Sequence record: OR846551.1
From: a phage
DNA: 1,015 nt
Direction: 5' to 3' (one strand)
Shown here one piece after another: positions 1 through 1,015 of this stretch. How positions within the stretch are numbered: position 1 is the stretch's first letter; every line of letters starts with the position of its first letter. Position numbers: made by a program.

Positions 1-1015
1 GAGTAGATGCGGCGAACATCTCGCGCTTAGAAACGGGTAAGCAAAAACAATTTACCGAACAAACACTGAGTAATATTGCCAAGAGCTTAGGTGTTGATAT
101 TGCTGATCTCTTTACCTCTGCCCACAAAAGTAATACTGTATATAAAAACAGTAATAATGAGGATGTTGCGCAGGTGAAGGATGTGTTCCGTATTGAAATG
201 CTGGATGTCAGTGCCAGTGCGGGAAATGGCCTTATCCAGGGCGGTGATGTCATTGATGTGATTCATGCCATTGAATACAGAACTGATAATGCTGTATCGA
301 TGTTTGGCGGACGGCCAGCCAATCACATTAAAGTTATCAACGTTCGTGGGGACAGTATGTGTCCAACCATTGAGCCAGGAGATCTCATCTTCGTTGATGT
401 CAGTATCAATCAGTTTGATGGTGATGGTATCTATGTATTTGGTTTTGATGATAAAATTTATGTCAAACGACTTCAAATGATTCCTGACAAACTGCTGGTG
501 ATTTCTGATAACCAGATTTACCGTGAATGGGGAATTACCAGCGAAAATGAACACCGATTCATGGTCTTTGGAAAGGTCTTAATCAGTCAGTCGCAAACCC
601 TTAAGAGACATAATTAACCTCAATATCCCATCCATCGGCCACCGAAAGGTGGCTTTTTATTACCTATAAATTTGCATATCTCGCAAATACCACTTGCATA
701 TCTCGCAATTTAATTTTATCTTTTATTCCAGACCAACTACAGGATTACAACAAAATCTGGTTGCAACACGGTGCATGTGTCGTAAGCAGTCAGTAAATGT
801 CAAAAACGAACAGGCAGGACGCCCACGAAGTAGCCGCCTGGGGCATATGAAGTCCAGGATGATTCGTTGAGTCATGTTGTGCCACTAGGCACTCATGTTA
901 AAGCAGGTGTATGAAATGAAAGTCCAGATTTTAAACAATAACTGTGAAGTCGTTTGGTCATACGACATAGCCGCCCCTGTAGATCAGAGCGGCGATAGCT
1001 GGACCAATGGGAAAC

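Follow-up and report, generated by a model that had tools for sequence, protein, structure and literature searches.

Judged by sequence, the closest described analogue of the locus analysed here is the two-site OL of phage HK022, rather than the three-site OL of lambda. We use 'the window' for the whole stretch of DNA under analysis, 1,015 nucleotides in length. HK022 and the window, whose CI repressors are 42% identical, have in common, in the same order, a cI gene, a terminator, two 15-bp dyads of the form 5-N5-5 placed about 24 bp apart, a PL promoter and a structured leader RNA, and in HK022 the putL element is positioned in the PL leader (PMC9378689). The two loci nevertheless differ in their particulars. 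The HK022 half-site is TGAAC/GTTCA as against TTGCR/YGCAA in the window. The proximal operator of HK022 lies between the -35 and -10 elements, whereas that of the window is situated about 9 bp further upstream, over the -35 and the spacer, and the HK022 leader RNA is unrelated to that of the window in both sequence and architecture.

Lambda shares with the window a repressor composed of HTH and S24 domains, a divergent cro, operators flanking cI and a PL directed toward int. However, the lambda OL consists of three sites of 17 bp and that of the window of two sites of 15 bp, and the proximal site of the window, unlike that of lambda, misses the -10, the same contrast as with HK022. Also unlike lambda, the locus has no rexAB between cI and OL and no annotated N gene; SfII, SfV and SfIV have been reported without homologues of N, cII and cIII (PMC3851460). 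The e14 element, with its regulators CohE/YmfK and CroE/YmfT, resembles the window in module type and in its neighbours ymfT and ymfL, and likewise combines, in the same order, a repressor, a terminator, dyads over a promoter, the same structured leader RNA and early-left genes. Its dyads, in contrast, are of the form TGTACC...GGTACA, its promoter is close to consensus (TTGACA-17-ATAATG) and its leader RNA begins at about +8 rather than at about +76 as in the window.

The repressor and operator sequences of the Stx phage 933W are presumably unrelated to those of the window. Its OL contains two sites, OL1 and OL2, as does that of the window (cited in PMC4587872). The 'no operators' result for PST2 Stx2a phages (PMC4587872) is inapplicable here, as it deals with O104:H4-type phages that have a different repressor, and RacR cross-talk (PMC9638921) was rejected as an account of this switch because it concerns the Rac prophage.

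By its database matches, the window corresponds to the immunity region of a lambdoid prophage of the Shigella phage SfII type. Its DNA shows 98.4% identity to the thrW prophage of E. coli O157:H7 and 97.9% identity to SfII. In both, the gene order is cro-like (minus strand), cI-like (plus strand), terminator, the two sites, early-left genes, xis, int and tRNA-Thr. The GenBank record of SfII annotates the terminator and leaves the operator and the promoter unannotated. A literature search returned no published account of the DNA specificity, operator binding or promoter start of this repressor, and a literal sequence search of the literature gave only unrelated primer matches. The OL/PL region of the window was found in 396 of 5,426 complete E. 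coli genomes (about 7%). The features that we assign to the window are collected in Table 1.

Table 1. Features assigned to the 1,015-nucleotide window, with the evidence or remark attached to each.
Feature	Position	Strand	Evidence or remark
CI-like repressor gene, 3' part (residues 27-230 and stop)	3..617	+	Pfam HTH_3 and Peptidase_S24
HTH recognition helix AANISRLETG	9-38	+	Within the repressor gene
Ala-Gly cleavage site	219-224	+	Repressor autocleavage motif, intact
Catalytic GDSM (Ser)	348-359	+	Repressor autocleavage motif, intact
Catalytic VKRL (Lys)	462-473	+	Repressor autocleavage motif, intact
Intrinsic terminator of the repressor transcript	637..661	+	Terminator scan; putative rho-independent terminator in the SfII record
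Promoter-distal operator candidate (OL2-equivalent), TTGCATATCTCGCAA	672..686	+	About -58 to -44 from the predicted start
Promoter-proximal operator candidate (OL1-equivalent), TTGCATATCTCGCAA	694..708	+	About -36 to -22 from the predicted start
Predicted PL-type promoter, TTGCAT-17-TATCTT	694..722	+	Predicted start near 729-730; start inferred
Structured RNA in the PL leader, 64 nt	805..868	+	Covariation, covariance model R1, genomic context
First ORF of the early-left operon, 5' part	916..1015	+	Runs past the window end; annotated CDS L001 12916-13191

The last 204 codons of the repressor gene lie inside the window and end with a stop codon at 615-617. The protein has a Cro/C1-type HTH domain at the N-terminus (Pfam HTH_3, 1.2e-11) and an S24, LexA-like peptidase domain at the C-terminus (Peptidase_S24, 6e-19), and it differs from SfII CI (SfII_37 / WP_001020634) by a single residue. 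No close solved structure was found for it in the PDB, where the best E-values were near 1e-4. Because the Ala-Gly, GDSM and VKRL motifs are all kept, release by autocleavage can be expected and the prophage switch is probably SOS-inducible. Beyond the window, the O157 prophage and SfII both have a divergent cro-like gene for an 86-aa HTH_3 protein, which lies on the opposite strand and 97 bp upstream. The terminator downstream of the repressor gene has a stem at 637-654 (GGCCACC/GGTGGCT) closed by a GAAA loop and followed by a T-run, and a hairpin with a T-run occupies the equivalent position in all relatives. At the other end of the window, about 200 nt without an ORF separate the pair of 15-mers from the ORF starting at 916, which is 91 aa long in the O157 prophage, is SfV orf33-like by match and matched no Pfam family.

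The original prediction described two exact copies of a 15-mer with TTGC/GCAA dyad ends, two helical turns apart and located directly after the repressor terminator. All of this was recovered: both copies of TTGCATATCTCGCAA are present on the plus strand with both dyad ends, they start 22 bp apart (about 2.1 turns), and the first of them begins shortly after the terminator. Allowing up to three mismatches, TTGCATATCTCGCAA occurs in the window at these two places only (0.04 copies expected by chance), and two such copies appeared in 0 of 200 dinucleotide-preserving shuffles. Taken alone, the looser TTGC-N7-GCAA pattern lacks significance, as 29 of 200 shuffles contained two or more matches to it. 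Extended to 25 kb of prophage, the search at up to three mismatches gave six matches against 0.98 expected, and four of the six are located in the two intergenic regions on either side of cI.

The promoter had been proposed as a -35-like TTGCAT overlapping the second copy, with a -10-like TATCTT 17 bp downstream; the two hexamers are indeed found at 694-699 and 717-722. The first six bases of the promoter-proximal site constitute the -35 hexamer, so that this site spans the -35 and the spacer and leaves the -10 uncovered. At the level of sequence, the candidate operators therefore overlap the elements of an early promoter reading away from cI. TTGCAT-17-TATCTT agrees with the consensus at 7 of 12 positions, and no better-scoring pairing of -35 and -10 was found on the plus strand within 618-915. 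A strict sigma-70 scan over 1.8 kb called zero promoters; the scan is uninformative, since the obligatory cI and cro promoters were missed as well.

Taken with the comparisons that follow, these observations make it very likely that the two 15-mers are OL2 and OL1 of the CI-like repressor encoded upstream, OL1 overlapping a PL-type promoter with a start near 730. Each site would be a 15-bp partial dyad made of a TTGCR half-site, a non-contacted centre of 5 bp and a YGCAA half-site, and would accept one repressor dimer; with 22 bp from centre to centre, the two sites face the same side of the helix, so that cooperative binding would be possible. The proximal site would lie over the spacer and the -35 hexamer of a sigma-70 promoter, from which transcription would run rightward, away from cI, through the structured leader into an early-left operon whose last genes are xis and int. 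Repressor bound in a lysogen would shut the PL-type promoter, and RecA-stimulated autocleavage of the repressor, as expected for its family, would release it. By analogy, the Cro-like protein probably uses the same two sites. Sites and promoter so understood form an ordinary lambda-style switch, whose mechanism is textbook and whose particulars are new.

We compared 20 distinct OL regions whose repressors are 67-100% identical, including those of ST64B (83%), a Klebsiella phage (71%), Citrobacter phage phiNP (69%) and Eeyore (67%); in these four distant relatives the DNA around the sites is unalignable. All 20 regions contain two [A/T]TGC-N7-GCA[A/T/C] sites placed 22-24 bp apart, the first beginning 54-61 nt past the stop codon. 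In all 20, moreover, a TAnnnT hexamer follows the TTGCNN of the second site at exactly 17 bp, in the form TATCTT in 15 cases, TAATTT in three, TAACTT in one and TATTGT in one. The resemblance to an OL/PL-type early promoter that had been suggested for this locus is thus upheld by the lambda-like topology, by sites in the cI-cro region (see below) and by the retention of sites, spacing and -35/17/-10 arrangement in 20 relatives.

This conservation bears on the possibility that the two sites are accessory repressor sites, which would loop with the cI-cro operators and lack a working promoter, the early-left genes being transcribed from elsewhere. The flanking FL and FR sites of coliphage 186 are a precedent for accessory sites of this type. 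The weakness of the promoter, with its 7 of 12 consensus positions and its absence from the strict scan, would fit such a role, as would a gap of about 80 nt between promoter and leader RNA in the window, compared to 5-25 nt in most other phages. However, looping sites alone would not account for a TAnnnT whose distance from TTGCNN stays at exactly 17 bp in all 20 regions while adjacent bases vary. From the terminator to the first ORF the plus strand offers no better promoter, and in ST64B-, phiNP- and Eeyore-type relatives the leader RNA follows the same promoter at 16-20 nt, an arrangement shared with 59 other contexts. We consider a purely accessory role quite unlikely.

Under the OL/PL reading, related sites are expected where cI and cro diverge, and the search for further TTGC-N7-GCAA-like sites upstream of the repressor gene found them. 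The cI-cro intergenic region of the O157 prophage and SfII comprises 97 bp (L001 11828-11924) and lies a short way upstream of the window. It contains TTGCTTATCACGCAA, which is 20 nt ahead of the cI ATG, and TTGCGCGTTATGCAT, which adjoins cro. The good operator matches in this region are at L001 11842-11856 and 11890-11904, 48 bp apart; an invariant palindrome, TTGCGCAA, is present at L001 11877-11884, and there are weaker half-sites as well, with no neat three-site array. Related partial palindromes are consequently found both 3' of cI (OL) and in the cI-cro region (OR).

A weight matrix was built from 10 OL sites of other phages, leaving out the site identical to that of the window to avoid circularity, and was run over both strands of the full 41,475-bp SfII genome. 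Among distinct loci the highest scores belong to the two OL sites (19.3 and 18.6 bits), followed by the two cI-cro sites (16.3 and 13.5 bits), and no other locus exceeds 11.1 bits. Shuffled genomes have a mean maximum score of 13.5 bits, so that single-site scores are unexceptional. The chance of both best non-OL loci falling in the same 97 bp is about 2e-5, by our own estimate from lengths. The significance of the matrix result, as we read it, lies in co-location and conservation, not in single scores. The fifth-best match in SfII, ATGCGCCTTACGCAC (11.1 bits; L001 11792-11806, corresponding to SfII 29514-29528), is 21 nt inside cro. In ST64B and phiNP the CGCAA half alone is kept, and the match may represent either a further operator inside the gene or a side effect of its coding sequence.

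The same intergenic region gives indications on the cI transcript. TGTAAT-N6-ATG, with no Shine-Dalgarno sequence, is kept upstream of cI in all relatives, and the OR site beside cI provides a TTGCTT hexamer 17 bp upstream of this TGTAAT. The e14 homologue has TTTAAT-N6-ATG upstream of its repressor gene, and the e14 ymfK mRNA has been mapped as leaderless by dRNA-seq (PMC4681348). Given the conserved motif without Shine-Dalgarno and the e14 precedent, the cI mRNA is probably leaderless, as at lambda PRM.

The location of these related sites, together with the way in which operator sequence changes between phages, also addresses which protein binds. Within the SfII family the operator consensus is TTGCR-N5-YGCAW. 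Perfect TTGCG...CGCAA ends are common among the relatives, from which the consensus half-site is TTGCG and the left halves of the window sites (TTGCA) are non-consensus. Repressors with a different helix 2 and 3 are accompanied by different dyads at their own OL and OR, ATGCG-N5-CGCAT in ENT47670 and TGAAC-N5-GTTCA in HK022, and e14 has TGTACC...GGTACA dyads at both of its own. In this comparison, which leaves out Fels-1, operator sequence co-varies with repressor specificity across the SfII family, ENT47670, HK022 and e14. The suggestion that the repressor has a distinct specificity agrees with the difference from the HK022 operator, which we read directly, and the window operator is presumably also unlike those of lambda, 434 and P22.

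Binding mainly by some other protein, be it the Cro-like protein alone, a YmfL/'cII'-annotated protein or a small LexA-family regulator, for instance at sites for a CII-type activator, is highly unlikely in view of these data. The lambda CII sites are TTGC-N6-TTGC, which the TTGC motif of the window recalls, and several further HTH proteins are encoded nearby. The TTGC tetramers of the window, however, have a spacing of 22 bp when read as direct repeats and of 11 bp when read as an inverted pair, and are not N6 direct repeats; the motif goes with the repressor family even where the downstream and replication modules are unrelated; and related sites are present where the cI and cro promoters must lie. 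As for LexA itself, a direct reading of the window sequence found no CTG-N10-CAG box of the host LexA type.

Phages with an identical repressor indicate which positions of the site matter. In these phages site 1 reads ..ATATT.., ..ATACC.. or ..ATATA.., and the variation is confined to its central bases. As only the centre of site 1 varies under identical repressors, the central bases are probably not contacted by the repressor, and for the same reason the exact match between the two copies in the window carries no special meaning and is incidental. A recent local duplication without function, which the identity of the copies could suggest, has a very low probability, given that the two-site plan persists down to 67% repressor identity with diverged sites and kept ends, and that the 7-bp spacer between the copies belongs to no repeat.

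Downstream of the proposed OL1 and PL, the leader contains a conserved element with a predicted secondary structure. A closing helix, P1 (805-810 paired with 863-868), surrounds a small hairpin (813-815 with 821-823) and a second helix, P2 (837-841 with 854-858), and loops and linkers are conserved. We assessed covariation on a gapless alignment of 30 diverse copies, using slid-partner controls. In the proposed helices 93% of the cells are paired, compared to 22-42% in the slid controls; double-sided changes number 94 versus 3-23, and the covariation score is 0.547 versus at most 0.123. Changes that compensate each other are seen at eight of the pairs, a single pair taking as many as five pair types, and 35 of the 72 alignment columns do not vary. 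On this evidence we hold it to be very likely that the element is a real structured RNA. Rfam 15 gave no match to the window at an E-value of 1 or below, and Rfam gave no match covering the leader RNA in five variant loci.

The leader RNA is widespread. Conserved copies are present in 49 GenBank phage records and in at least 120 IMG/VR contigs, and none of the records inspected annotates the element. It is found in 1,845 of 5,426 complete E. coli genomes (34%), K-12 e14 included, and among the species-representative genomes sampled the full element is limited to Enterobacterales. Model R1 detects a single copy, on the PL side, in the complete genome of SfII, and 99 of 100 viral loci contain one copy each. 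In the sole two-copy case among the 100, the viral contig L092 (979-1037 and 1647-1718, both on the minus strand), the additional copy is divergent, scores 41 bits and lies about 670 nt past the first on the same strand.

Across 59 distinct immunity contexts, the leader RNA is preceded by the same succession of elements, namely the end of a gene, a terminator, and operator-like repeats with a sigma-70 promoter, and it lies on the same strand as they do. The gap between the -10 and the leader RNA is 5-25 nt in most of these contexts and about 82 nt in the window. On the downstream side, a hairpin (AAGCG...CGCTT) and then a canonical boxA follow the leader RNA in at least 13 of 56 distinct contexts, among them L019, L024, L033, L053, L054, L064, L084 and L134. 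The boxA has the form CGCTCTTTAACAA or TGCTCTTTAA and is located 8-35 nt past the element. In rrn operons hairpin and boxA come in the same order. A strict boxA motif is found in 10 of 56 contexts on the strand of the leader RNA and in 0 of 56 on the reverse strand, a bias that fixes the transcribed strand and, for the phages concerned, connects the leader with Nus-dependent antitermination. No boxA was found downstream of the leader RNA variant of the window. Counts of G.U against A.C (6 versus 7) did not contribute to the choice of strand, which was decided by genomic context and the boxA test.

Two further settings of the same RNA can be described. In K-12 e14 (L135 2421-2600, the cohE-ymfJ intergenic region) it scores 72.7 bits and sits at about +8 of the TTGACA-17-ATAATG promoter; this promoter is overlapped by TGTACC..GGTACA-type dyads, which are also present in the e14 cohE-croE intergenic region. 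T5-like lytic Providencia phages of the PR1/PSTCR5 type (L053, L124) carry it a few nucleotides past an extended -10 promoter (TTGCTT...TGaTAATAT), with a boxA after it, in a region that bears a repeat_region annotation. Its presence in lytic T5-like phages means that the leader RNA is not tied to lysogeny, and together with the unrelated modules on both flanks points to host machinery as its probable partner.

Sequence sharing among phages with this type of repressor also separates the switch from the RNA. The module corresponding to window positions 1-777 is found at about 90% DNA identity in mEp460, Stx2a_1447, WGPS2, 1720a-02, the PhiR phages and phiSTEC1575-Stx2k. A mosaic boundary is apparent at about position 777, beyond which mEp460, Stx2a_1447 and PhiR-type phages diverge, and the leader RNA was not found in the 3-4 kb examined in these phages. 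On this basis, the immunity module extends over some 50 nt of the transcribed leader, whereas the RNA element forms a module of its own.

What this RNA does can be approached by comparison with HK022 put. Like put, the leader RNA is located just past the early-left promoter, is of similar length (about 64 nt versus about 70) and is carried by phages reported without N (PMC3851460). The architectures differ: putL and putR are tandem stem-loops with conserved CGAACGGC, GUCGGG and CAAUG blocks, whereas the window RNA has a closing helix round two hairpins, and put copies are found at both PL and PR as opposed to the PL side only. The put RNAs act in cis, promoting read-through of terminators by contact with the zinc-binding domain of the RNA polymerase beta' subunit. 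We rejected homology to put on the grounds of this different architecture, the single copy and the absence of BLAST similarity to putL and putR; model R1 gave no match in the HK022 immunity region. We tentatively raise the possibility, by analogy and at less than even odds, that the predicted promoter drives a leader containing a previously undescribed class of cis-acting RNA, a put-like processive antiterminator or anti-pausing element that would work on the transcription machinery of the host. Put-like antitermination or anti-pausing is our leading hypothesis for the function of the RNA, and stabilisation of the 5' end of the mRNA is the main alternative.

Other candidates at this place were discarded. 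A short conserved ORF within the leader RNA was rejected because the ATG is not kept, ST64B having ACG, and the minus-strand CACAACAU near 880-895 was rejected as an AgvB/AsxR-like anti-sRNA because those RNAs are at the PR' moron site (PMC4104026). The minus strand also has a promoter-like match, TTAACA-16-CAACAT (901-874, 8 of 12 consensus positions), from which an antisense start would be at about 867, and a weak terminator-like hairpin (826 to 810) with a T-run between 826 and 799. These would together yield an antisense RNA of about 65 nt over the leader RNA, but the flanks that hold them are specific to the SfII variant, and the arrangement is therefore probably due to chance.

The immunity type of the window governs the Shigella phage SfII, which converts serotype, as well as the thrW prophage of O157:H7, and the same type, with about 96% repressor identity, is present in the Stx2a- and Stx2k-converting phages Stx2a_1447, WGPS2 and phiSTEC1575-Stx2k. 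With an operator consensus and a promoter map, immunity grouping, induction reporters and the engineering of the repressor become open to direct test. The leader RNA is the more interesting lead, as it is widespread, present in K-12 and easily tested. If the antitermination hypothesis is true, it would explain how terminators are read through in the N-less phages SfII, SfV, SfIV, ST64B and those of the e14 type, and in some T5-like lytic phages, and the repressor-operator pair described here would be the gate on synthesis of the leader RNA.
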